Below, in pieces: positions 1 to 12,929 of a DNA stretch of 14,328 nucleotides. This DNA comes from a virus (Duplodnaviria > Heunggongvirae > Uroviricota > Caudoviricetes). The position numbers and the translations under genes are program-made. The notes below the pieces were generated by a model. It made no database searches. It worked only from the letters and a program-made list of their open reading frames with translations, and was not told the origin of the DNA. The DNA is taken from IMG/VR virus record IMGVR_UViG_2778261450_000002, positions 1 through 14,328 of that record; one strand, given 5' to 3'. Each line of letters begins with the position of its first letter. The stretch's first letter is position 1.

Positions 1-1248
1 ATGGCACTGAATATTCCATTCAGAAATGCGTACTATCGTTTTGCATCCAGTTACTCATTTCTCTTTTTTATTTCCTGGTCGCTGTGGTGGTCGTTATACG
101 CTATTTGGCTGAAAGGACATCTAGGGTTGACAGGGACGGAATTAGGTACACTTTATTCGGTCAACCAGTTTACCAGCATTCTATTTATGATGTTCTACGG
201 CATCGTTCAGGATAAACTCGGTCTGAAGAAACCGCTCATCTGGTGTATGAGTTTCATCCTGGTCTTGACCGGACCGTTTATGATTTACGTTTATGAACCG
301 TTACTGCAAAGCAATTTTTCTGTAGGTCTAATTCTGGGGGCGCTATTTTTTGGCTTGGGGTATCTGGCGGGATGCGGTTTGCTTGATAGCTTCACCGAAA
401 AAATGGCGCGAAATTTTCATTTCGAATATGGAACAGCGCGCGCCTGGGGATCTTTTGGCTATGCTATTGGCGCGTTCTTTGCCGGCATATTTTTTAGTAT
501 CAGTCCCCATATCAACTTCTGGTTGGTCTCGCTATTTGGCGCTGTATTTATGATGATCAACATGCGTTTTAAAGATAAGGATCACCAGTGCGTAGCGGCA
601 GATGCGGGAGGGGTAAAAAAAGAGGATTTTATCGCAGTTTTCAAGGATCGAAACTTCTGGGTTTTCGTCATATTTATTGTGGGGACGTGGTCTTTCTATA
701 ACATTTTTGATCAACAACTTTTTCCTGTCTTTTATGCAGGTTTATTCGAATCACACGATGTAGGAACGCGCCTGTATGGTTATCTCAACTCATTCCAGGT
801 GGTACTCGAAGCGCTGTGCATGGCGATTATTCCTTTCTTTGTGAATCGGGTAGGGCCAAAAAATGCATTACTTATCGGAGTTGTGATTATGGCGTTGCGT
901 ATCCTTTCCTGCGCGCTGTTCGTTAACCCCTGGATTATTTCATTAGTGAAGTTGTTACATGCCATTGAGGTTCCACTTTGTGTCATATCCGTCTTCAAAT
1001 ACAGCGTGGCAAACTTTGATAAGCGCCTGTCGTCGACGATCTTTCTGATTGGTTTTCAAATTGCCAGTTCGCTTGGGATTGTGCTGCTTTCAACGCCGAC
1101 TGGGATACTCTTTGACCACGCAGGCTACCAGACAGTTTTCTTCGCAATTTCGGGTATTGTCTGCCTGATGTTGCTATTTGGCATTTTCTTCTTGAGTAAA
1201 AAACGCGAGCAAATAGTTATGGAAACGCCTGTACCTTCAGCAATATAG
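1..1248 (+). CDS. cscB: LacY-family oligosaccharide:H+ symporter (MFS), probably sucrose permease; flanks the prophage
   Basis: 415-aa ORF from ATG at 1 to TAG at 1246-1248. Hydrophobic throughout, with LacY-like blocks (GIVQDKLGLKKPLIW, FEYGTARAWGSFGYAIG, PKNALLIGVVIMALRIL, EVPLCVISVFKYSV). Length and N-terminus match my recollection of E. coli CscB; the symbol is from memory and not verified. Confidence 0.8.
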   Translation: MALNIPFRNAYYRFASSYSFLFFISWSLWWSLYAIWLKGHLGLTGTELGTLYSVNQFTSILFMMFYGIVQDKLGLKKPLIWCMSFILVLTGPFMIYVYEPLLQSNFSVGLILGALFFGLGYLAGCGLLDSFTEKMARNFHFEYGTARAWGSFGYAIGAFFAGIFFSISPHINFWLVSLFGAVFMMINMRFKDKDHQCVAADAGGVKKEDFIAVFKDRNFWVFVIFIVGTWSFYNIFDQQLFPVFYAGLFESHDVGTRLYGYLNSFQVVLEALCMAIIPFFVNRVGPKNALLIGVVIMALRILSCALFVNPWIISLVKLLHAIEVPLCVISVFKYSVANFDKRLSSTIFLIGFQIASSLGIVLLSTPTGILFDHAGYQTVFFAISGIVCLMLLFGIFFLSKKREQIVMETPVPSAI

Positions 1249-1256
1249 ACGTAAAC

Positions 1257-1301
1257 TTTTTCCGGTTGTTGTCGATAGCTCTATATCCCTCAACCGGAAA
1301 A
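1257..1301. repeat. 11-bp perfect inverted repeat (TTTTCCGGTTG / CAACCGGAAAA) with 22-nt spacer, directly after the permease stop
   Basis: Arms at 1258-1268 and 1291-1301 are exact reverse complements. The loop is long for an intrinsic terminator and there is no clean T-run, so the function is unclear (terminator, REP-like element or junction scar). Confidence 0.35.
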
Positions 1302-1775
1302 TAATAATAGTAAAATGCTTAGCCCTGCTAATAATCGCCTAATCCAAACGCCTCATTCATGTTCTGGTACAGTCGCTCAAATGTACTTCAGATGCGCGGT
1401 TCGCTGATTTCCAGGACATTGTCGTCATTCAGTGACCTGTCCCGTGTATCACGGTCCTGCGAATTCATCAAGGAATGCATTGCGGAGTGAAGTATCGAGT
1501 CACGCCATATTTCGCTATCAGGATTCTGTGTGATGGTTACATCGCCCGGCTCAGGGCTGTTTAGTCATCAGCGCTTTCTGACAGTGCTGAGATTTCAACC
1601 TGTTGCAGTAAAAATGAGTAGATATAAGGCAAGTGTGCTGCCAAACCCATCTTTTACGGGGTGAAGGTAGATTTCGTTTGAAGGGTATCTGGTGCCCTGC
1701 AGACATCTACTTGGCGCGGCAGGGGATTGATTGGAATGGTGTTTTTTAGATGTGAAAAATATTTTACCCGCTATT

Positions 1776-1976
1776 TTACCCATTGGCGCGGCTTAAGAGC
1801 TTATTTTTGAATTCACAATGGTCACGATATAACCATCTTGCTCGCCCGTGGATAACTTTGGCTTTTGGCAGGTCGCCGGACTTAATCCGGTCATAGATGA
1901 AGGTCTTACCGAAGCCAGTATCAGCCATGATGAATTTCAAATCAACCAGTGAATCAGGTTGTAGTTCGTGTTGCAT
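1776..1976 (-). CDS. AlpA/Xis-family excisionase-like HTH DNA-binding protein
   Basis: 66 aa, ATG at 1976-1974 preceded by a GGAGA Shine-Dalgarno. Sequence (…LKFIMADTGFGKTFIYDRIKSGDLPKAKVIHGRARWLYRDHCEF…) fits the AlpA/excisionase winged-helix pattern. No integrase ORF follows it. Confidence 0.6.
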   Translation of the reverse strand: MQHELQPDSLVDLKFIMADTGFGKTFIYDRIKSGDLPKAKVIHGRARWLYRDHCEFKNKLLSRANG

Positions 1977-2021
1977 GAGTGCTATCTCCGAATATGGAAT
2001 CGAACCTGCAAATCAGGCAAG

Positions 2022-2042
2022 AAAAAGCCGCATTGATGCGGC
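2022..2042 (-). terminator. intrinsic terminator for leftward transcription, upstream of the xis-like gene
   Basis: Minus strand reads GCCGCA-TCAA-TGCGGC followed by TTTTT. Confidence 0.5.
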
Positions 2043-2111
2043 GATGGTAGGTCTGGATATCATTGAGCAATGAACAGGCCTCATCGAGAGTGAGGCGGTG
2101 TTATTTCATGG

Positions 2112-2456
2112 TTAGTCCTTGCGTAGCTCGCTGATTCTTCTGTAAGTCTCTGGTGCTTTGTTTCCGTGTATCTTCATTTCAGACTTCAACAGAGCAACGA
2201 GGGAATCCCATTCGTTGAGGATTCCTTTGAATGCCGGAACGCGCTTTGCAACCTTGTTGAATGAATCTCTGATTTCTGGAATCTGCTCAACAAGTGCAAC
2301 GCATCGTCTGAAATCGGCTGCGTCATGGGGAGCGCCGAAGTGATGACCATAGATATTCTTTTTCAGTCCACATGCGATTGAGGCAAGAGTTGCGCTACTG
2401 ATGCCGACATCGCCAGTCGATTGCCATTTCAAAACCTTCATAGCCAAATCTGACAT
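2112..2456 (-). CDS. hypothetical phage early-left protein (114 aa)
   Basis: ORF with ATG at 2456-2454 preceded by GGAGA (MSDLAMKVLKW…). The longer ORF-track start at 2483 would lie inside the terminator hairpin and has no RBS. Confidence 0.55.
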   Translation of the reverse strand: MSDLAMKVLKWQSTGDVGISSATLASIACGLKKNIYGHHFGAPHDAADFRRCVALVEQIPEIRDSFNKVAKRVPAFKGILNEWDSLVALLKSEMKIHGNKAPETYRRISELRKD

Positions 2457-2467
2457 TTCTTGTCTCC

Positions 2468-2492
2468 AATAAAAAACCGCCATCAGGCGGCT
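2468..2492 (-). terminator. intrinsic terminator with the upstream gene's stop codon in the loop
   Basis: Minus strand: AGCCGCC-TGAT-GGCGGTT then TTTTATT. The TGA in the loop is the stop of the 55-aa ORF 2483..2650. Confidence 0.5.
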
Positions 2493-2650
2493 TGGTGTTC
2501 TTTCAGTTCTTCAATTCGAATATTGGTTACTTCTGCATGTGCTATCTGCGCCCATATCATCCAGTGGTCATAGCAGTCATTGATGTTCTCTGCTTCGATA
2601 ACTCTGTTGAATGGTTCTCCATTCCATTCACCTGTGACTCGGAAGTGCAT
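2483..2650 (-). CDS. small hypothetical protein (55 aa)
   Basis: ATG at 2650-2648 with GGAG upstream, hand-translated as MHFRVTGEWNGEPFNRVIEAENINDCYDHWMIWAQIAHAEVTNIRIEELKEHQAA. Below the 60-aa ORF-track cutoff; flanked by terminators on both sides. Confidence 0.4.
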   Translation of the reverse strand: MHFRVTGEWNGEPFNRVIEAENINDCYDHWMIWAQIAHAEVTNIRIEELKEHQAA

Positions 2651-2660
2651 TTATCATCTC

Positions 2661-2687
2661 CAAAAACAAAACTCGCCGTAGCGAGTT
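2661..2687 (-). terminator. intrinsic terminator for leftward transcription
   Basis: Minus strand: AACTCGC-TACG-GCGAGTT followed by TTGTTTTTG. Confidence 0.5.
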
Positions 2688-2749
2688 CAGATAAAAGAAA
2701 TCCCCGCGAGTGCGAGGATTGTCATTCACCTTTAACGGCAAGTTGCAGG

Positions 2750-3361
2750 TTAGCCACGGTTAACCTCCAGTTGTGGTGCTGCCTCAATAGCAGCCCTGTA
2801 ACCAGCAGCATGACCGCGAAAGTTAGCAATCTCTGATAGCCACGCTTTAATCATGGCCTGAGTTGGTTCCTTCGGCACCATAACCCAACCATCCGGAATT
2901 ACCGGAGAGTTGCCACCGGGAATATTTTCCGGAATATTTTGTTGTGCGTTTTGTGGTTGTTCGGATTTACCCTGAAGCATGGCGGCGCGGCAGGCGTTCC
3001 AGCCAGCTGTTCGCCCAAGCGCGTAAACTTCAGATGGCTCAAGATAATCAATGTCATGCCCGTCCTCATCGTCGTTCTCAGGTAATGCAGCAGGTACTAC
3101 CGGTACTGGCGGAGCGGCGTAGACTTCAATAATCCCATTGTCAATAGGCCATTCTCCATCCTTGAGATAGTCACTTGTGCCGTCAACTTGCTGTTCAGCA
3201 ATGTGGAATGCACCAACTGGTTCTGCCTCAAGCGAGGCCAGTGCAATTCGTGCCAGTTCCCTAAGATTTTCGCTATATGGTGAAGTATTATCACGATTGA
3301 TTATGTGATTAGCTGTATCTATGAGAACTTGCTTTTGTTCTTCTCTGTTCATAGTGGTCAT
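2750..3361 (-). CDS. hypothetical phage protein (203 aa, acidic/Pro-rich central region)
   Basis: Long ORF with ATG start, 1 nt downstream of the stop of the preceding gene in the leftward operon. No family recognised. Confidence 0.65.
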   Translation of the reverse strand: MTTMNREEQKQVLIDTANHIINRDNTSPYSENLRELARIALASLEAEPVGAFHIAEQQVDGTSDYLKDGEWPIDNGIIEVYAAPPVPVVPAALPENDDEDGHDIDYLEPSEVYALGRTAGWNACRAAMLQGKSEQPQNAQQNIPENIPGGNSPVIPDGWVMVPKEPTQAMIKAWLSEIANFRGHAAGYRAAIEAAPQLEVNRG

Positions 3362-3362
3362 A

Positions 3363-3662
3363 TCACATCACCCTGAAGCCGTTGCATTTACGTAAGAAAT
3401 CGCAGATATAGCCCTTCATTTTTTCGTGCCAATCCCGATCATTCCCATTGCACCAACCATCAGGTGGAGTCCAGTTTTCTATCAGAGCAGCCATTTTCTT
3501 TGCTTTCGCCGGAGTAGCTGTTGCGGTATCGCAGTAATGACGAGTGTCAACAAACTTATCCATGCCATCGATATCAAGTACGCAAAACCATGTGTGATTC
3601 GGCATTTCAACAGATGGTATTTGTTGCCCACGTCGACGTTTATCAATAAGACATACAGTCAT
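3363..3662 (-). CDS. hypothetical phage protein (99 aa, Cys-containing)
   Basis: Its ATG (3662-3660) overlaps the TGA of the upstream reading frame (ATGA at 3659-3662), indicating translational coupling. Confidence 0.6.
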   Translation of the reverse strand: MTVCLIDKRRRGQQIPSVEMPNHTWFCVLDIDGMDKFVDTRHYCDTATATPAKAKKMAALIENWTPPDGWCNGNDRDWHEKMKGYICDFLRKCNGFRVM

Positions 3663-4202
3663 GGTTCCACCTTCTCTATTTGCTTAAGACCGTCTCTCAC
3701 TGCATTAAGTACGCGTTCCAGATACTGGTATTTCGGGTTTGGTATCGTTGGCCAGTTGGCATACCACGGATCATCACCAAAGAGATTCAGTAGTTTGTTA
3801 CCGACGCCGAAACAGCAGCAGCTTTCTTTTACGTCATCGGTGTTTTCCGCCTCGTCCCACATTTCGCGAGCCAGTACGGCGTCGATTTCTCTCTCTTCGT
3901 AACTTTATGATTTCTGACTTCACGAAAAGCAGATTTGCATCGTTGTCATCGTCGACCGTGCTTAGCAGTTGAGGGTCGAAATTGTCGATTAGATAATCGT
4001 TGCTAACTCGCTTAATGAACGTCTGCACATCATCACCGCCCATAGCAAACCAAGCCGCTGTCCACGCTTTTCCGTAGCAGGTGATGGTGATTCTTCCCTT
4101 TCCATGTTCGTAGTTTTCAATCATCACTCGAATCGGATCTAGTCGCTCTGCACCGGTTATAACGAATGACAACACATCAATCTTTTCAACCGTTACACTC
4201 AC
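3659..4202 (-). pseudogene. phage gene split into two overlapping frames (3834..4202 and 3659..3862) by a frameshift at a (TC)4T/(AG)4 tract
   Basis: The upstream frame starts with GTG overlapping the previous stop (GTGA at 4199-4202) and ends in a low-complexity tail (LRRERNRRRTGSRNVGRGGKHR). The downstream frame is open from 3904 and reads as ordinary protein (YEEREIDAVLAREMWDEAENTDDVKE…). Both frames are open only across 3834-3904, and the dinucleotide tract 3888-3896 lies inside that interval. A +2 or -1 nt change there would give one ORF of about 180 aa. Confidence 0.45.
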
Positions 4203-4630
4203 TGGTTGCCTCCTTTGCGAAGCTCAGCGGCGAAGGCTACTGCGTGATCATGATGTTCAAGTGTGTATGCGCACTCAGCAAACATCTCCACGCCCTGCGC
4301 TCGTACTTCAGCCAGGAAAGCGTCGGTGGCTGGGGTTTCAGTAACATCATCTTCCCATTCGCTAAACTCCTCACGACAAAAGTCATTAAATTCCTTCTCA
4401 GATTGCTTAAGTGAGGTATTTTCAGCAGCCATCTTCGCGCATTTAGCCTCAAGGTTATCAATCGTGATTCCAACAGAACGACACTCCCGCAACGCCGTTT
4501 CCAGTTTTGATTCAAGTTCACCGAACTTACGGACAAGATATTCAGCGTTTGTTTCGTTGACCTTTAAATCTCGTGGGATGCATTTGCCTTTCAGAAATCC
4601 ATCCATCTCAATTAGTGACATTTGTTTCAT
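4199..4630 (-). CDS. hypothetical phage protein (143 aa, predicted coiled-coil, acidic C-terminus)
   Basis: ATG at 4630-4628 overlaps the upstream TGA (ATGA). Heptad-like charged sequence (…[43 protein letters not shown]…). Confidence 0.6.
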
Positions 4631-4809
4631 TTCTTCCCACTCCGGCACATCGCATTCAGATATTTGTTTTGATTTACTGACGGAAAAGAATTTCTCTTAA
4701 GTAATTCCTCTCTCGATGGCATTGGCTTTACGCGTTGGCGAATAATCATTTCTGCAGGAAGAATGCCGGGGTTGTATGCAAGTCCTCTCATGGTAAATTC
4801 CTCAGTCAT
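4627..4809 (-). CDS. small hypothetical protein (60 aa)
   Basis: ATG at 4809-4807 lies 2 nt before the TGA of the upstream gene (short overlap). Reads [60 protein letters not shown]. Confidence 0.45.
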
Positions 4810-5098
4810 TACTGATAGCGCCATAGCGTGAGCGGTAATTACGCAGGCGCGGGTCGATATATTCAGGGAAGTGGGTATATGTGGCTTTACGGAATGGTCG
4901 GATTGATGTCTGGTAAATTCGCTCTCGTTCTTCTTTCTCTGCAAGCCATATACAGTGGCGAAATTCCTTTTCCTCTTTCGTTTCCTGTGGTAGCGACATT
5001 ATCCGATCGTAGTTTTTTCTGAATTTATCCAGCACCTCCGATACGGATTTGCCGGAACAGCGGCGCGGGTCATCCGCACCATACAAAGGCGCTGGCAT
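4802..5098 (-). CDS. hypothetical phage protein (98 aa, basic)
   Basis: ATG at 5098-5096 with AGGAGA 5 nt upstream. No family recognised. Confidence 0.6.
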
Positions 5099-5114
5099 GT
5101 TTTTCTCCTGTTTA

Positions 5115-5663
5115 TTATTTAGCTAACTTTTTCCAGATCGCTGAAACGTATTTGGCTTGGTGGATGGCATCATCAAGCGCGTTGTGGCGAGTTCCTTTGA
5201 ATGGCATATCTCGCTTAGGGTCGAATCCTATTACCTTTCCAAGCTCGACGATTGTTCTTACGTCGCGGTCATTCCACCACTGCCACGGAACTGGCTGCCC
5301 TGTCAGCGAATAACTGTTTCGGAGAATAACGCAGTCAAATGATGCTCCATTCCCCCAAACCTGAACGAATTTGTGGTTAGCGTTCTTTATGATGAATTCA
5401 GATAACCATGAAAGAGCCGTTGAAAGCTCCTGAGTGTTGCTGGTTAGCGATTTTCTGGCTTCTTCACTCTGTTCCAGCCACCATAAAATCGTTGAAGCGT
5501 CAGGACGCGCCCGATATCGCATTGATGACTCAAGCGAGATATTTACCGAGAACTCTTCTCCTGTTTCTCCGGTATTCGGTTCAAAGAATACCGCCCCAAT
5601 AGAAATAACTGGCGCGTATGGCCCGTTGCCCATTGTTTCAAGGTCAACCATCAAGTGATTCAT
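5115..5663 (-). CDS. DEDDh-family 3'-5' exonuclease (DnaQ-like fold)
   Basis: 182 aa with Exo I (MVDLETMG), Exo II (WGNGASFDCVIL) and Exo III (HNALDDAIHQAKY) motifs. AAGGA RBS upstream of the ATG. Confidence 0.8.
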   Translation of the reverse strand: MNHLMVDLETMGNGPYAPVISIGAVFFEPNTGETGEEFSVNISLESSMRYRARPDASTILWWLEQSEEARKSLTSNTQELSTALSWLSEFIIKNANHKFVQVWGNGASFDCVILRNSYSLTGQPVPWQWWNDRDVRTIVELGKVIGFDPKRDMPFKGTRHNALDDAIHQAKYVSAIWKKLAK

Positions 5664-5671
5664 GTAAGTCC

Positions 5672-6187
5672 TTAAATTGCGTGAATAGCGTGACGAGGGA
5701 AAGGGAGAGTTACTGGTGCAAAGGGGATATCGTCGTCAAAATCCATAGGTGGTTCGCTGTGATTTACCTGCTTCTGAGGCTGCTGTTTTTGTTGCTGACC
5801 GTTATTTCGCTGAGGTGAAGACTGTTCATTGCCTCCTTGCTTGCCACCAAGCATTTGCATGGTTCCACCAACGCCCACGATAACTTCGGTAGTGAACCGA
5901 TCCTGTCCACTTTGATCCTGCCATTTTCTTGTCCGCAATTTGCCTTCAAGATAAACCTCAGAGCCTTTTCGCAGATATTCGCTGGCAATTTCTGCCAGTT
6001 TCCCGCTCATTACCACGCGGTGCCACTCCGTCTGCTCCTTTTGCTCTCCAGTTTGCTTATCACGCCATTGTTCTGACGTAGCAACTGTAAGGTTTGCAAA
6101 TGCCGTTCCTGATGGTGAATATCTGATTTCTGGATCATGCCCAAGGCGACCAATAATGATCACCTTATTTACGCCTCTGCTTGCCAT
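5672..6187 (-). CDS. ssb: single-stranded DNA-binding protein with a 15-residue extension beyond the DDDIPF tail
   Basis: N-terminal OB-fold region is near-identical in pattern to E. coli SSB (MASRGVNKV…TEWHRVV…[15 protein letters not shown]…[12 protein letters not shown]…TTEV), followed by a Gly/Gln-rich linker and [10 protein letters not shown]. The ORF then continues [15 protein letters not shown] before TAA. Confidence 0.9.
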
Positions 6188-6895
6188 TTATGCCGCCTGT
6201 TTTAGTTCGTTAACTCTGATGTTCATTACCTGAACGCATTTAGCCTGCGCCTCCTCGTTGCCAGCCATTAATTGCCAGTCACGCTGATAACGCTCGATGA
6301 GTTTTTCCTTGTCAGTTTCTGTCGATGCATAATCGCTGAAGTCTTTCAGGATTTGTTCGCAGTCAACCGATGGAGATTTCTGGTTGGTATTTTCTGGTGA
6401 TGGTTGATTGCCAGATGCTGGCATTGCCCATCCCGGCAGCGATGGAGGGGACCAGTAAAATCCTGTTCCATCTTTCAGTTTTGCCCTGTGCCATCCCTGC
6501 TTTTTATCGAGAGATGTTTGTGCGAAACCTTCCTCAAGGTTATACAGATACCGACCGATTCCCCACTGAACGGCAGCGCGCTTCATTGCACCGGAACGAC
6601 CACCTTTGACGGCTTCTACCTGCGTGTTTTCAGCAGCATCCCATTTGGTTACCCATTCGGAATCAATCTTTATTGATATGCCGCATTCAACGCCGCCGTT
6701 GTTGGGAATATCGCGGTATTCATTGCGCCATCCTGCTTTGCCACAAACATCGTCCAGGCGTTTCATGATTGCCCGGTTCGTTACATAAGCCAGCACCATA
6801 GCCCACACTTTGCCATCGCGTGTTTTACCGCTTTGCTGTATTCGCCATTCGATATCTTCAGGGCTGAATGGCTCATCGAATTTATTCAAATCCAT
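6188..6895 (-). CDS. Rad52-like single-strand annealing protein (Sak-type phage recombinase)
   Basis: 235 aa with the Rad52/Sak pattern (…GKVWAMVLAYVTNRAIMKRLDDVCGKAGWRNEY…WDAAENTQVEAVKGGRSGAMKRAAVQWGIGRYLY…). Sits immediately upstream of ssb. Confidence 0.75.
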   Translation of the reverse strand: MDLNKFDEPFSPEDIEWRIQQSGKTRDGKVWAMVLAYVTNRAIMKRLDDVCGKAGWRNEYRDIPNNGGVECGISIKIDSEWVTKWDAAENTQVEAVKGGRSGAMKRAAVQWGIGRYLYNLEEGFAQTSLDKKQGWHRAKLKDGTGFYWSPPSLPGWAMPASGNQPSPENTNQKSPSVDCEQILKDFSDYASTETDKEKLIERYQRDWQLMAGNEEAQAKCVQVMNIRVNELKQAA

Positions 6896-6994
6896 AATTC
6901 ACCTCAGAATGGACATGGCCCAAGGAAATAACGCTGATTTAATACTTCGACTCGGGACAAATTAAGGCATACCCGCATTCCTTCGCGGTCACCA

Positions 6995-7153
6995 TTATGG
7001 CGATACCAGAGAGCTTTCTGCGTGTACATGCGTCTCTGTAACTTGCTCTCCTTCACTGTGGTTGCAAGTGACATGAATATCTCCTTCGTTACCGATTAAT
7101 TCTTTCATCTGACGAATGAATTCTTCGTCTGACCAGTTATCTGTAAAATTCAT
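6995..7153 (-). CDS. small hypothetical protein (52 aa) in the kil-like position
   Basis: ATG at 7153-7151 overlaps the TGA of the cIII-like ORF (ATGA). Reads MNFTDNWSDEEFIRQMKELIGNEGDIHVTCNHSEGEQVTETHVHAESSLVSP. Function not recognised. Confidence 0.4.
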   Translation of the reverse strand: MNFTDNWSDEEFIRQMKELIGNEGDIHVTCNHSEGEQVTETHVHAESSLVSP

Positions 7154-7320
7154 GGACGGCCTTGTTGTTTCAAAATATCCCAAAGCTTTTCGAGCAAACT
7201 TTTCATTCTTGGTTGTTTAAAGTCTGCTCCGGTTAAAATATTTTTTCGTGAATGCTGTACCGATAAAATCGGGTTGAAAGGGCGAACCGATGCCGCCCCT
7301 GCAATAGCGAACTGTTGCAT
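7150..7320 (-). CDS. cIII: CIII-like protein (putative FtsH inhibitor that stabilises CII)
   Basis: 56 aa, hand-translated as MQQFAIAGAASVRPFNPILSVQHSRKNILTGADFKQPRMKSLLEKLWDILKQQGRP. Resembles lambda CIII (MQYAIAGW… and …LIDILNQPG). AAGGAG RBS 6 nt upstream. Below the ORF-track length cutoff. Confidence 0.55.
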   Translation of the reverse strand: MQQFAIAGAASVRPFNPILSVQHSRKNILTGADFKQPRMKSLLEKLWDILKQQGRP

Positions 7321-7395
7321 AGGATGCTCCTTCTGTTTGATTGCATAACGAAAACGCCTCTCGTGAAGCGTTATTGGTATGCGGTAAAGCCGCGC

Positions 7396-7707
7396 TTAGG
7401 CGGCTGATGTTTCTTCTTTCAGGCTTTCGAGATATTTACGTGGGTCGTCGTAACATTGGCATTCGCTGTACCAATCCACCCAGCGATCAGTAAGCCCCAT
7501 CTCTGATAAATCTTCATCGGTAAGGCTCTCATCCCACATCTCAAGGCCGTTAGCATTGCAGTAATCAGGCTTGATGTTGTTGTCATACTGAAAGGCGTCA
7601 TAATCAGCCAGTGCGTCCATCAGGCGAACACCCTCTTCAACACTTGCCACTTCTACAATGAACGGCTTCATAGGTACTTGCGGGATATGCCAGACACGTA
7701 ATTTCAT
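7396..7707 (-). CDS. acidic hypothetical protein (103 aa, about 22% Asp+Glu)
   Basis: ATG at 7707-7705 with GGAGG 5 nt upstream, directly after a terminator. The longer ORF-track start at 7761 would lie inside that terminator. Confidence 0.6.
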   Translation of the reverse strand: MKLRVWHIPQVPMKPFIVEVASVEEGVRLMDALADYDAFQYDNNIKPDYCNANGLEMWDESLTDEDLSEMGLTDRWVDWYSECQCYDDPRKYLESLKEETSAA

Positions 7708-7719
7708 ATATCCTCCGTC

Positions 7720-7748
7720 AAAAAAATTGCCCTCACATTGGAGGGCAA
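7720..7748 (-). terminator. intrinsic terminator in the leftward operon (tL1-like position)
   Basis: Minus strand: TTGCCCTC-CAATGT-GAGGGCAA followed by TTTTTTT. Confidence 0.6.
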
Positions 7749-7808
7749 AGAAGATTTCCAATAATCAGAACAAGTCGGCTCCTGTTTAGTTACGAGCGAC
7801 ATTGCTCC

Positions 7809-7836
7809 GTGTATTCACTCGTTGGAATGAATACAC
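7809..7836. other. 9-bp perfect inverted repeat (GTGTATTCA / TGAATACAC) with 10-nt loop, downstream of ral
   Basis: Exact reverse-complement arms at 7809-7817 and 7828-7836. Could be an RNA stem-loop or a protein-binding palindrome; no T-run follows. Confidence 0.3.
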
Positions 7837-7863
7837 AGTGCAGTGTTTATTCTGTTGTTTATG

Positions 7864-7894
7864 CCAAAAATAAAGGCCACCATCAGGCAGCCTT
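7864..7894 (-). terminator. intrinsic terminator with the ral stop codon in the loop
   Basis: Minus strand: AAGGCTGCC-TGAT-GGTGGCCTT (9 bp including two G-U pairs) then TATTTTTGG. Same architecture as the terminator at 2468-2492. Confidence 0.45.
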
Positions 7895-8083
7895 GTTGTT
7901 CTGTTTACCAAGTTCTCTGGCAATCATTGCCGTCGTTCGTATTGCCCATTTATCGACATATTTCCCATCCTCCATTACAGGGAACATTTCTTCAGGCTTA
8001 ACCATGCATTCCGATTGAAGCTTGCATCCATTGCATCGCTTGAATTGTCCACACCATTGATTTTTATCAATAGTCGTAGTCAT
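7883..8083 (-). CDS. ral: Ral-like restriction alleviation protein (66 aa)
   Basis: Sits immediately left of N as ral does in lambda. Has a Cys cluster (C-x5-C-x2-C-x5-C). The lambda Ral match (MTTTIDKNQW…) is recalled from memory, not aligned. Confidence 0.6.
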   Translation of the reverse strand: MTTTIDKNQWCGQFKRCNGCKLQSECMVKPEEMFPVMEDGKYVDKWAIRTTAMIARELGKQNNKAA

Positions 8084-8153
8084 AAGGATAGTCCTGGTAT
8101 TGTTCCATCACATCCTGCGGATGCTCTTCGAACTCTTCAAATTCTTCTTCCAT
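8067..8153 (-). CDS. 28-aa highly acidic micro-ORF between N and ral
   Basis: ATG at 8153-8151 preceded by GAGGTG, hand-translated as MEEEFEEFEEHPQDVMEQYQDYPYDYDY. Overlaps the ral start by 17 nt. Too short to call with confidence. Confidence 0.3.
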   Translation of the reverse strand: MEEEFEEFEEHPQDVMEQYQDYPYDYDY

Positions 8154-8161
8154 ATATCACC

Positions 8162-8488
8162 TCAAATAAGTGGTTTGCTGCCTAATTTCATTTTCTGGCG
8201 ACCAACACAAGTCAACCCCATTTCACTACGTGGCTTGCTGTACCATGTGCGCTGATTCTTGCGTTCAATACGTTGCAGGTTGCTTTCAATCTGTTCGTGG
8301 TATTCAGCCAGCACTGTAAGGTCTATCGGATTCAGTGCGCTTTCTACTCGTGATTTCGGTTTGCGATTCAGCGAGAGAATAGGGCGGTTAACTGGTTTTG
8401 CGCTTACCCCAACCAACAGGGGATTTGCTGCTTTCCATTGAGCCTGTTTCTCTGCGCGACGTTCGCGGCGGCGTGTTTGTGCATCCAT
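8162..8488 (-). CDS. N: antitermination protein N (lambda type)
   Basis: 108 aa from the ATG at 8488-8486: MDAQTRRRERRAEKQAQWKAANPLLVGVSAKPVNRPILSLNRKPKSRV…, including the arginine-rich RNA-binding motif. The ORF-track start at 8578 would be a spurious 30-aa extension. Confidence 0.9.
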   Translation of the reverse strand: MDAQTRRRERRAEKQAQWKAANPLLVGVSAKPVNRPILSLNRKPKSRVESALNPIDLTVLAEYHEQIESNLQRIERKNQRTWYSKPRSEMGLTCVGRQKMKLGSKPLI

Positions 8489-8598
8489 CTGGATTCTCCT
8501 GTCAGTTAGCTTTGAGTAACGCGCCGTGATGCTTATCTCCACGGTTGCTGTCTTGCAGCTGCATTTCGCGCTACTCAAAGCCTTCTGCTTTGAATGCT

Positions 8599-8629
8599 GC
8601 CCTTCTTCAGGGCTTAATTTTTAAGAGCA
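8599..8629 (-). promoter_or_regulatory. nutL (boxA TGCTCTTA and boxB GCCCTGAAGAAGGGC)
   Basis: Minus strand reads GATGCTCTTAAAAATTAAGCCCTGAAGAAGGGCAGCATTCAAAGCAGAAGG, matching the lambda nutL arrangement. Lies between pL and N. Confidence 0.8.
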
Positions 8630-8660
8630 TCACCTTCATGGTGGTCAGTGCGTCCTGCTG

Positions 8661-8741
8661 ATGGCTTAAAATTACAAGAAAGATTGTATGTTGTAAACAA
8701 GAAATATTGTAATAAGAGGCGTAAAAAACAAACTCCATTGT
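8661..8741 (-). promoter_or_regulatory. pL promoter with three 434-type operators (OL)
   Basis: Three 14-bp ACAA-N6-TTGT sites: ACAAGAAAGATTGT (8674-8687), ACAAGAAATATTGT (8697-8710), ACAAACTCCATTGT (8728-8741). The leftward transcript start region CATCAGCAGGACGCACTGACCAC follows on the minus strand. Confidence 0.8.
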
Positions 8742-8791
8742 TTTTAAACGGAAAATAGTTTGTTTTTTGGTTATAGAAATCGAGGTGAGGA

Positions 8792-10144
<1,353 letters not shown>

Positions 10145-10152
10145 GACATTCC

Positions 10153-10184
10153 CGCTCTTATACATCCCCGCCCTGAAAAAGGGC
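10153..10184 (+). promoter_or_regulatory. nutR (boxA CGCTCTTA and boxB GCCCTGAAAAAGGGC)
   Basis: Exact boxA/boxB-like motifs immediately downstream of cro. Confidence 0.8.
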
Positions 10185-10261
10185 ATTACCAGAGAAAAAA
10201 TCTCTATGGTTTTGCGTTTCTTTGCGAAGCCAACTCTATCTAATCATTAAGGAAATTATGT

Positions 10262-10543
10262 ATGGGTACTATTGCAACTAAAAGCAAGAAAGCGGCTCGC
10301 ATCGAGTCAGCCTTGCTGAACAAACTGGCACTGATGGGGCAGAAGACATTCGCTCGCGCGATGGGGGTTCCGGAATACCAGGTAAGCCGATGGAAGAATG
10401 GTTTCTTCTCGCAGGTAAGCATGATGCTGGCTGTTCTGGAATACGGAATCGAAGACGATGAAATGGCTGAACTGACTAAGCGGCTTGCCGATTACCTGAC
10501 AAAAGAAAAAGCCCCGAAGAACGGCGAATTCTTCGAGGCCTGA
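10262..10543 (+). CDS. cII: CII-like transcriptional activator
   Basis: 93 aa. The block …ARIESALLNKLALMGQKTFARAMGVPEYQVSRWKNGFFSQVSMMLAVLEYGIEDDEMAEL… parallels lambda CII (…LRIESALLNKIAMLG…QISRWKRDWIPKFSMLLAVLEWGVVDDDMARL…). Confidence 0.85.
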   Translation: MGTIATKSKKAARIESALLNKLALMGQKTFARAMGVPEYQVSRWKNGFFSQVSMMLAVLEYGIEDDEMAELTKRLADYLTKEKAPKNGEFFEA

Positions 10544-10577
10544 TGTAGAAAGACTGGATCAATCCACAGGAGTAATT

Positions 10578-10739
10578 ATGACAAAACGTCGTAAGAAATA
10601 CCAGGAAAAAGAAGAGATTCGACACCCTGATTCACCTGAGGGATTAGTGGTAGCCGCAGCAAATAACAGGGCGTTCGCAGAGCGCCTTGTTGGTGTTTAC
10701 AGACTAGCCAAAGCAGGAGTGAAACATGGGCGTCGTTAA
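10578..10739 (+). CDS. small basic hypothetical protein (53 aa) between cII and the O-like gene
   Basis: ATG at 10578 with AGGAG 5 nt upstream, hand-translated as [53 protein letters not shown]. Its 3' end overlaps the O-like start by 14 nt. Below the ORF-track cutoff. Confidence 0.35.
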   Translation: MTKRRKKYQEKEEIRHPDSPEGLVVAAANNRAFAERLVGVYRLAKAGVKHGRR

Positions 10740-11556
10740 GTTAGCTGATTACAGGCCTCAACTGGAGGTCGTGGAGCATCGCGTGGCAGAACTCGAAGAT
10801 GGCTACACTCGGACTGCAAACACACTGTTAGAAGCCGCCATGCTTTCTGGACTTACTCTACATCAGTTACTGATTGTTATGGCTGTGTGGCGCAAGACAT
10901 ACGGTTACAACAAAAAAATAGATTGGATCGGAAACGAACAGTTCGCTGAACTCACTGGCATGGCACCAACCAAATGTTCTACCGCCAAAAACGAGCTTAT
11001 CAGAATGGGAGTTCTCATTCAGGTGGGGCGTCAAGTTGGTATGAATACAAACATTTCCGAGTGGAAAACGAAAGTTAACGGATTCGGTAAAACATTTACC
11101 AATTCGGTAAAACAAACCTTCACCAAATCGGTAAAAAGCAATTTACCGAATCAGTCAAACACAAAAGACAATATACAAAAGACAATAAATACAAATACCC
11201 CCTTACCCCCTAACGGGGGCGGCGATGGGCAGGTTAAACCTGAACGTCGCAAGGCAGAACGAATCGACTATGAATCCTTCCTGAACGCCTACAACACCGA
11301 AGTCGGTGACAGACTTCCACATGCTGTTGCGGTCAACGAGAAACGCAAACGTCGCCTGAAGAAAATCATCCCGCAACTGAAAACGCCAAACGTGGACGGT
11401 TTCAGAGCGTATGTCAGGGCGTTTGTGCATCAGGCCAAGCCATTTTACTTCGGAGACAACGACACGGGATGGACGGCAGATTTTGATTACCTGCTGAGAG
11501 AAGACTCGTTAACGGGAGTTCGGGAAGGGAAGTTTGCAGACAGGGGGATTGCATGA
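10726..11556 (+). CDS. replication initiator, lambda O-like N-terminal domain
   Basis: 276 aa. N-terminal region (…[17 protein letters not shown]…[25 protein letters not shown]…NELIRMGVL…NISEW) parallels lambda O. The gene contains the iteron array. Confidence 0.85.
11082..11200. repeat. replication origin: iteron array followed by an AT-rich tract, inside the O-like gene
   Basis: Direct repeats of TTCGGTAAAACA at 11083-11094 and 11103-11114, a degenerate copy at 11127-11137 and an inverted copy TTACCGAA at 11143-11150. Then ACAAAAGACAATA x2 and an A/T-rich run (11161-11197). Same layout as ori-lambda. Confidence 0.65.
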
Positions 11557-12929
11557 GACAGGATATCGAAGCGAGCGTTATCGGTGGCCTGCTGATTGGT
11601 GGATTAACACCAACCGCCAGTGACGTTCTGGCAACGCTGGAGCCGGAAGCGTTTTCAATTCCGCTCTACCGGAAAGCCTTCGAGGTTATCCGCAAGCAGG
11701 CGAGAAACAGAAACCTAATCGATGCGCTGATGGTTGCCGAGGCGTGCGGAGAGGAGCATTTCACGTCAATCCTGATGACCAGCAAAAACTGCCCGAGTGC
11801 CGCAAACCTGAAGGGATATGCCGGAATGGTCGCGGATAACTATCACCGCCGTCTGGTGCTGGAAATCATGGATGAAATGCGTGAACCAATTCAGAGCGGA
11901 ACCATCGACGCATCGAGTCAGGCGATGGATGAGCTTGTAAAGCGTCTTTCATCCATCAGAAAGCCCCGTGACGAGGTTAAACCTGTACGGTTAGGGGAAA
12001 TCATTACTGACTACACTGACACGCTTGACAGGCGTCTGAGGAACGGAGAAGAGTCCGATACCCTGAAGACCGGAATCGAAGAACTTGACGCTATCACCGG
12101 AGGGATGAACGCGGAAGACCTGGTGATTATCGCCGCTCGTCCTGGTATGGGGAAAACCGAACTGGCGCTGAAGATTGCCGAAGGCGTTGCAAGCCGCGTT
12201 ATTCCTGGTTCTGACGTCCGGCGCGGAGTATTGATTTTCTCGATGGAAATGAGCGCATTGCAGATTGCAGAGCGAAGCATTGCCAACGCCGGGAGGATGT
12301 CGGTTAGCGTGCTGCGAAATCCTGCATCGATGGATGACGAAGGCTGGGCGCGCGTTGCTAACGGCATGAGTCAGCTTGCAGATTTGGATGTATGGGTAGT
12401 CGATGCCTCGCGGTTATCTGTCGAAGAAATACGCTCAATCGCAGAACGGCACAAACAGGAAAATCCAAACCTGTCACTCATCATGGCGGATTATCTTGGC
12501 CTGATTGAGAAGCCGAAAGCAGACCGCAACGACCTCGCAATTGCTCACATCTCCGGAAGCCTGAAGGCGATGGCGAAAGACCTGAAAACACCGGTTATTT
12601 CCCTGAGTCAGCTTTCACGCGATGTTGAGAAGCGACCAAACAAACGCCCGACAAACGCAGATTTGCGTGATTCAGGAAGCATTGAACAGGACGCAGACTC
12701 AATCATCATGCTCTATCGGGAAGCGGTATATGACGAGAACAGTAGCGCCGCGCCATTTGCTGAAATCATCGTGACGAAAAACCGTTTTGGCTCACTTGGT
12801 ACGGTTTACCAGCGGTTCTGCAACGGACACTTTGTTGCATGTGACCAGGATGAAGCCAGACAGATTTGCACAACATCAAATGCACCCGCTGCACGTGGCA
12901 GACGATATGCACAAGGGGCTGACGTATGA
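11553..12929 (+). CDS. DnaB-family replicative DNA helicase (phage-encoded, P22 gene 12 type)
   Basis: 458 aa. ATG overlaps the O-like TGA (ATGA). Walker A (ARPGMGKT), an Asp-rich Walker B region (…[10 protein letters not shown]…) and DnaB-like N-terminal domain. Confidence 0.9.

Follow-up and report, generated by a model that had tools for sequence, protein, structure and literature searches.

The stretch of viral DNA analysed here (14,328 nucleotides, called the window, to which all coordinates refer) was found to carry one end of a prophage next to a host sucrose permease gene. The segment 1690-2020 is very probably the attR end of a lambdoid prophage that occupies the 3'-end of argW, the gene for tRNA-Arg(CCU), with an integration module of the type known from KplE1 (CPS-53), HK620 and Sf6. 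This type of junction is already known, and it is an ordinary, well-characterised right-hand (attR) end of an argW prophage. The 16-nt core, the arm-type and TorI sites, the dedicated intS promoter in attL and the conserved module have all been published, and modules of the TorI type have been found in HK620, Sf6, CUS-3 and many argW prophages (PMC2951348, PMC3509656). The features of the prophage end and its surroundings are, from left to right:

1-1248, plus strand: cscB, sucrose permease, a host gene (Pfam LacY_symp, E = 1e-193; RefSeq cscB / oligosaccharide MFS transporter).
1249-1689, no strand: host intergenic DNA from cscB to the 3'-end of argW, the B' flank of attR (99.3% identity to ON470622).
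1258-1301, plus strand: hairpin after cscB, formed by an 11-bp inverted repeat (arms 1258-1268 and 1291-1301); host sequence, no U tract.
1690-1702, minus strand: attR core, the displaced 3'-end of argW, CTGCAGGG--CACCA (aligned to K-12 pawZ/attR, Ecol_224 and intact argW).
1703-1775, minus strand: P arm of attR, 73 bp (equal length and near-identical sequence in K-12, HK620 and Sf6).
About 1720-1732, minus strand: putative IHF-like site AATCAATCCCCTG, with one mismatch to the consensus WATCAANNNNTTR.
1760-1781, minus strand: two tandem putative IntS arm-type sites, GGGTAAAATA on the torI strand (motif match to the P' arm sites).
1776-1976, minus strand: torI, 66 aa, recombination directionality factor or excisionase (RefSeq torI in related genomes).
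1996-2011, minus strand: 16-mer TTGCAGGTTCGATTCC, comprising TTGC (2008-2011) and a T-loop-like block GGTTCGATTCC (1996-2006).
2008-2020, minus strand: TTGCCTGATTTGC, putative cII-type activator site, aligning with the lambda/HK97 pI box TTGCGTGTAATTGC.
2022-2042, minus strand: intrinsic terminator GCCGCATCAATGCGGC followed by TTTTT, in the leftward operon upstream of torI (97% with HK97, HK022 and 434).
2112-2483, minus strand: ORF of 123 aa of the early left operon, the final gene ahead of the mosaic junction with the integration module.

The host side of the junction was located by alignment with ON470622, in which an intact argW lies approximately 440 bp from cscB. Window positions 1249-1702 share 99.3% identity with the cscB-argW interval of this record up to the tRNA gene's 3'-end; the two sequences are collinear through 1702 and divergent beyond, with phage DNA from 1703. 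The suggestion of the first-pass annotation that argW, adjoining the csc locus, was the integration target was thereby borne out. The inverted repeat after cscB, which the same annotation had counted among the signs of an altered prophage end, is a perfect 11-bp repeat at the positions it had given, and as RNA the hairpin has a predicted energy of -17.3 kcal/mol (z = -3.6); a role at the prophage end was dropped, since the repeat is host DNA common to ON470622.

The phage of ON470622, vB_EcoS-716R3 (L002 4328-4399, L122 3117-3143), is a different prophage located in the 5' half of argW. In this record nucleotides 1-27 of argW are kept on the yfdC side and a complete argW, with C instead of T at position 5, is found on the cscB side, its 5' part presumably supplied by the phage. 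The 441-aa integrase gene is divergent from the tRNA gene, and replacement of the 5' part of a tRNA gene is an unusual form of integration.

On the phage side, the last prophage gene is torI, encoding a 66-aa winged-helix recombination directionality factor and transcribed toward the junction, with the same position and orientation as in K-12. The product is 100% identical over 66 aa to TorI of K-12 and to PDB entry 1Z4H, 'Tor inhibition protein', and the earlier reading of the xis-like gene at 1776-1976 as an excisionase and the last phage gene was right. TorI serves the KplE1/CPS-53 prophage as recombination directionality factor. The gap between cscB and torI, previously put at about 530 bp with no ORF longer than 62 aa, is 527 bp (1249-1775), and its longest ORFs, of 51 and 62 aa, are both without a Pfam match. 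The 62-aa ORF (1595-1783, minus strand) extends from the torI stop across the P arm and the core and on into host DNA. Its counterpart in the free phage is the gene spanning attP, HK620 hkaB or Sf6 gene 17, of which it represents the split remains; once the phage has integrated, the ORF is probably no longer a genuine gene.

Searches of the whole window by tblastn with IntS and two other argW-associated integrases disclosed no integrase-like sequence (best E 0.23), confirming that nothing of this kind is present near xis. The integrase is absent beside torI because attP sits between torI and intS and is split on integration. In the free phage the order is torI, P arm, core, P' arm and intS. 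Integration cuts this module at the core, such that torI, the P arm, two putative IntS arm-type sites and the displaced argW 3'-end remain beside cscB, while intS, five TorI sites and the reconstituted argW would lie at the opposite end of the prophage, beyond the window.

The arrangement is documented in several relatives. In the free phages HK620 and Sf6, as well as in two phages of Erwinia and one of Klebsiella, torI, P arm, core, P' arm and int all have one direction. In K-12, torI is found at attR, where the displaced copy of argW is annotated as pawZ, and intS lies beside argW at the opposite end. The prophage of Ecol_224 has the same cscB-attR-torI junction as the window, and its far end, approximately 40 kb from attR, carries intS followed by a P' arm (five TorI sites of the GTTCG type, three arm-type sites) and then by intact argW and yfdC. 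By analogy, the prophage in the window is expected to have an intact intS and attL at its far end. The intS gene is driven by its own promoter inside attL and is uncoupled from torI (PMC2951348).

About 3,800 of 5,426 complete E. coli genomes match part of the torI-attR region, and the proportion of the window covered by any one of them is at most 71%. A missing integrase beside xis is the expected look of a module that is very common in E. coli, and scans for prophages should not call it decay.

The first-pass annotation had instead suggested an end altered by integrase deletion or rearrangement, or else a tandem insertion, for a layout that proved normal for modules of the KplE1/HK620/Sf6 type. 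It is very improbable that an integrase once stood beside xis, as in lambda, and was then lost. The window does lack an integrase, and int follows xis in modules of the lambda type; however, both the torI-core distance and the sequence are as in the functional HK620 and Sf6 and in the excisable KplE1 (PMC2951348), no int remnants were detected in the window by tblastn, host DNA is undisturbed as far as the tRNA end, and the relatives carry intS at the opposite end.

Just as improbable is a tandem insertion at an argW hotspot, with the 16-mer or the core marking the junction of two elements. The gene is indeed used by at least three integrase types, namely IntS, a 420-aa P4-type integrase in contig L013 and the 441-aa integrase in ON470622, and L013 is a real case of torI, P arm and core abutting a P4-type integrase island. 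In the window, however, the normal cscB-side flank follows directly after the core, and no second core or integrase is present in 1249-1702. Moreover, the 16-mer cannot be an integration junction, as the free phages HK620 and Sf6 have it at the same place. The element in L013 (1306-5465, NORP01000056.1) consists of torI, the P arm and a core variant, CTGCAGGGGACGCCA, followed directly by the 420-aa integrase and an island, possibly for defence, with genes for RloB and AAA_15/AAA_21 proteins.

The sequence TGGTGCCCTGCAG at 1690-1702 is the 3'-end of argW on the minus strand, on the host side of torI; the first-pass annotation had pointed to a possible att-core remnant on the inner side of torI and overlooked the true core on the outer side. 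The distance from the core to the torI stop, 73 bp, is identical in K-12, HK620 and Sf6. The published core is CTGCAGGGGACACCAT (PMC2951348). At the phage/host boundary the full core CTGCAGGGGACACCA(T) is expected; in the window the core stands at the right place and in the right orientation but with 13 of 15 nt, an internal deletion having removed 2 nt. In the other notation, the core is TGGTG--CCCTGCAG in the window and TGGTGTCCCCTGCAG when complete.

The full core is kept in every other copy examined, and the deletion was not found in 5,426 complete E. coli genomes, in the GTDB species representatives or in IMG/VR. A 91-nt query across the core gave 339 records covering at least 80% of its length; in the complete E. 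coli genomes, the full-length matches listed span 93 nt, against 91 in the window, and none of those is identical to it. A 48-mer across the deletion had no match in the same genomes. The independent Logan contig L014 does carry the deletion; this contig has 99.97% identity to window 1665-12481, is reported in four samples and stops 40 nt past the core. The deletion is thus not a one-off error, since it recurs in a separate assembly of this prophage.

Comparison of the attP cores across phages suggests two inverted half-sites, GATGT and ACACC, placed around CTGCAGGGG. The two nucleotides deleted are the final G of this spacer and the A that begins the right half-site; therefore, impaired excision would be expected, and on these grounds the deletion may block or impair excision by IntS and TorI. 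It does the host no harm, the displaced tRNA end being without tRNA function. If excision is blocked, the window may hold a natural case of a prophage grounded through mutation of its displaced tRNA end.

Inward of the core, the P arm is of full length and collinear with those of functional phages, and it aligns base for base with K-12, HK620 and Sf6. Its inner part contains the tandem copies of TATTTTACCC, at 1760-1769 and 1772-1781, the second of which overlaps the Gly66 and stop codons of torI; TTTTACCC occurs four times in the window versus 0.38 expected. Their motif, GGGTAAA/TTTACCC, recurs in three copies shortly before the intS ATG in K-12, Ecol_224, HK620, Sf6 and phages of Erwinia and Klebsiella, and it is there that IntS P' arm-type sites with a conserved TAAA have been mapped (PMC2951348). 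The HK620 record labels the equivalent 23 bp as attP repeat, and the 135-bp attR substrate, which recombines in vitro, ends at a primer that is the reverse complement of window 1781-1800 (PMC3509656).

As judged by their motif, the tandem repeats are putative IntS arm-type sites and not excisionase sites; the excisionase has its five TorI sites on attL (PMC2951348, PMC3509656), and the repeats were therefore assigned to IntS. Of the earlier proposal of recombinase or Xis arm-type sites, the coordinates, the overlap with the 3'-end of xis and the integrase as binder stood, and Xis as binder did not. A further direct repeat, TTGGCGCGGC (10 nt, at 1711-1720 and 1783-1792), flanks the P arm. Its first copy varies among related prophages, and the repeat is therefore probably due to chance.

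Upstream of torI, the 16-mer TTGCAGGTTCGATTCC occurs once in the window, on the minus strand, where approximately 0.03 matches are expected even with two mismatches allowed. It had been placed at 1986-2001 and is in fact at 1996-2011, ten bases to the right. Its recognition as the T-arm of argW was correct, as it is an exact copy of the variable-loop/T-arm segment, and the identity to argW ends sharply at 16 nt. No cloverleaf surrounds it, as had been noted: ARAGORN found no tRNA gene in the window, and Rfam gave no tRNA match there even at E <= 10. Its interpretation as an att-core remnant was abandoned, the 16-mer being instead a conserved element within the upstream region of torI. An exact copy was found in 74 of 79 torI loci from IMG/VR, the 16-mer is also present in K-12, HK620 and Sf6, and it is located inside annotated promoters, named 'phage integration' in HK620 and 'pI' in Sf6.

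Conservation of the inner part extends beyond E. coli. The pattern C-x-GGTTCGATT-x-C is invariant in eight lineages, namely E. coli, Citrobacter, Serratia, two of Pantoea, Edwardsiella, one MAG and an Erwinia phage with two tandem copies, and these include six genera besides that of E. coli. The flanks are unalignable, and the T-loop-like block in these lineages is 16-25 nt upstream of the xis ATG. In the Erwinia phage, Midgardsormr38 (L008 2786-2830), the block reads CAGGTTCGATTCCC and is present twice in tandem, 16 nt apart, upstream of the excisionase gene. The block is absent from the related modules L108, L110, L111 and L115-L119 and from those of Klebsiella Chronis and Erwinia 49, and several modules without it also have no intergenic region upstream of xis.

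Since it is missing from some related modules, the block GGTTCGATTCC is dispensable; its conservation across genera means, on the other hand, that it is under selection. Taken together, the alignments indicate a dispensable yet selected cis element of putative regulatory function. The 16-mer is not needed for excision in vitro, because the 135-bp attR substrate excludes it (PMC3509656).

TorI sites are defined by the pentamers GTTCG, GATCG and GTCCG (PMC2951348), and the block might be a TorI operator through which torI regulates itself. It contains the recognition pentamer GTTCG, within GGTTCG as in site I4, and two tandem copies are present in Midgardsormr38. With a weight matrix built from 28 distinct pentamer-carrying sequences of the P' arms of six modules, however, the block scored -1.1, whereas the scores of 27 of the 28 training sites were 8.9-15.5; it ranked 684th of 28,632 window positions. 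Furthermore, GTTCG is followed by C or T in 27 of 28 P'-arm sites and by A in the block, and an invariant stretch of 11 nt exceeds the needs of a degenerate pentamer site. Autoregulation of torI through the block is accordingly unlikely.

Alternatively, the 16-mer might be a piece of argW that an ancestral phage took up, now a relic without function and att-like only through its contiguity with the core in argW. This would account for the exact identity to argW over 16 nt, for the overlap of the 16-mer with the first core base in argW, by which the two pieces are contiguous there, and for its absence from several related modules. A relic would not be expected to show, as the 16-mer does, an inner stretch of 11-13 nt without variation in eight lineages that reach from E. 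coli to Edwardsiella, Serratia, Pantoea and an Erwinia phage, with unalignable flanks around it and a constant spacing of 16-25 nt from the xis ATG. The outer TTGC, not conserved in other genera, is accounted for by the cII-type box, and a relic is an unlikely explanation.

The block GGTTCGATTCC is the part of argW immediately to the left of the crossover core, and its conservation ends where the core would start. The argW stretch to the left of the core is taken here to be the left core-type half-site of attB. The best guess is that the block might be a protein-binding site mimicking the left half of the integrase's bacterial target, the T-loop of argW. As a tentative proposal, possible though not probable, the block would act as a decoy half-site for the integrase or as some other operator, placing expression of the excisionase under the control of IntS or of a host or phage factor, and, separately, the loss from the core would have locked this prophage in.

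Expression of torI is thought to be the main control point for the excision of such prophages (PMC2951348), and no mention of the 16-mer was found in the literature searched. A T-loop-like element conserved across genera in the torI promoter region is a small lead, torI being the presumed control point of excision. A different argW integrase with the T-arm as its core was considered as the source of the 16-mer and rejected: the phage of ON470622, with its 441-aa integrase, duplicates argW nucleotides 1-27 and not the T-arm, and the 420-aa P4-type element of L013 shares the 3'-end core.

The outer end of the 16-mer belongs to another element. The HK620 record annotates the identical 13 nt TTGCCTGATTTGC as a cII protein-binding site, and in alignments with lambda-type int/xis modules (HK97 and two contigs) the homology stops immediately behind TTGC(A/G)G. 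The second TTGC of the cII-type box is thus supplied by the first four bases of the 16-mer. Next to this box is the terminator, whose counterpart in HK97 is annotated as such. The mosaic junction was observed within 2008-2650, where ORFs of 55 and 123 aa and the terminator are 93-98% identical to those of HK022, HK97, 434 and Stx1a phages; in these phages the same ORFs and terminator precede xis-int of the lambda type. The junction after TTGC(A/G)G matches the 'boundary sequence' bsq2 annotated in Sf6. The 123-aa protein is also found in other contigs, beside lambda-type, P4-type and TorI-type integration modules.

Among known systems, KplE1 (CPS-53) of E. coli K-12 shares with the window TorI, the core sequence, the 73-bp P arm with its two repeats, the 16-mer and the argW target. 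It differs in being a 10-kb defective remnant beside dsdC, whereas the window has an apparently full lambdoid early region beside cscB; upstream of the 16-mer K-12 has no clean terminator hairpin, unlike the window, and its core is full where that of the window is without 2 nt. HK620 and Sf6, which are P22-like, have the same torI-attP-int order (int-attP-hkaC/gene 18) and approximately 95% DNA identity to the window over the core, P arm, torI and promoter region, and their records annotate the attP core, the attP repeats and a pI/cII-type promoter covering the 16-mer. As free phage genomes they have attP unsplit, and the genes upstream of the module differ from those in the window. Modules of the lambda/HK97/HK022 type resemble the window in being placed at the end of the leftward early operon, after the same upstream ORFs and terminator, and in having a TTGC..TTGC box before the start of the excisionase gene. 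In the lambda type, however, xis and int are adjacent with attP beyond int, such that both genes end up at attL after integration; the families to which xis and int belong differ from those of the window's module, and the target is not a tRNA gene.
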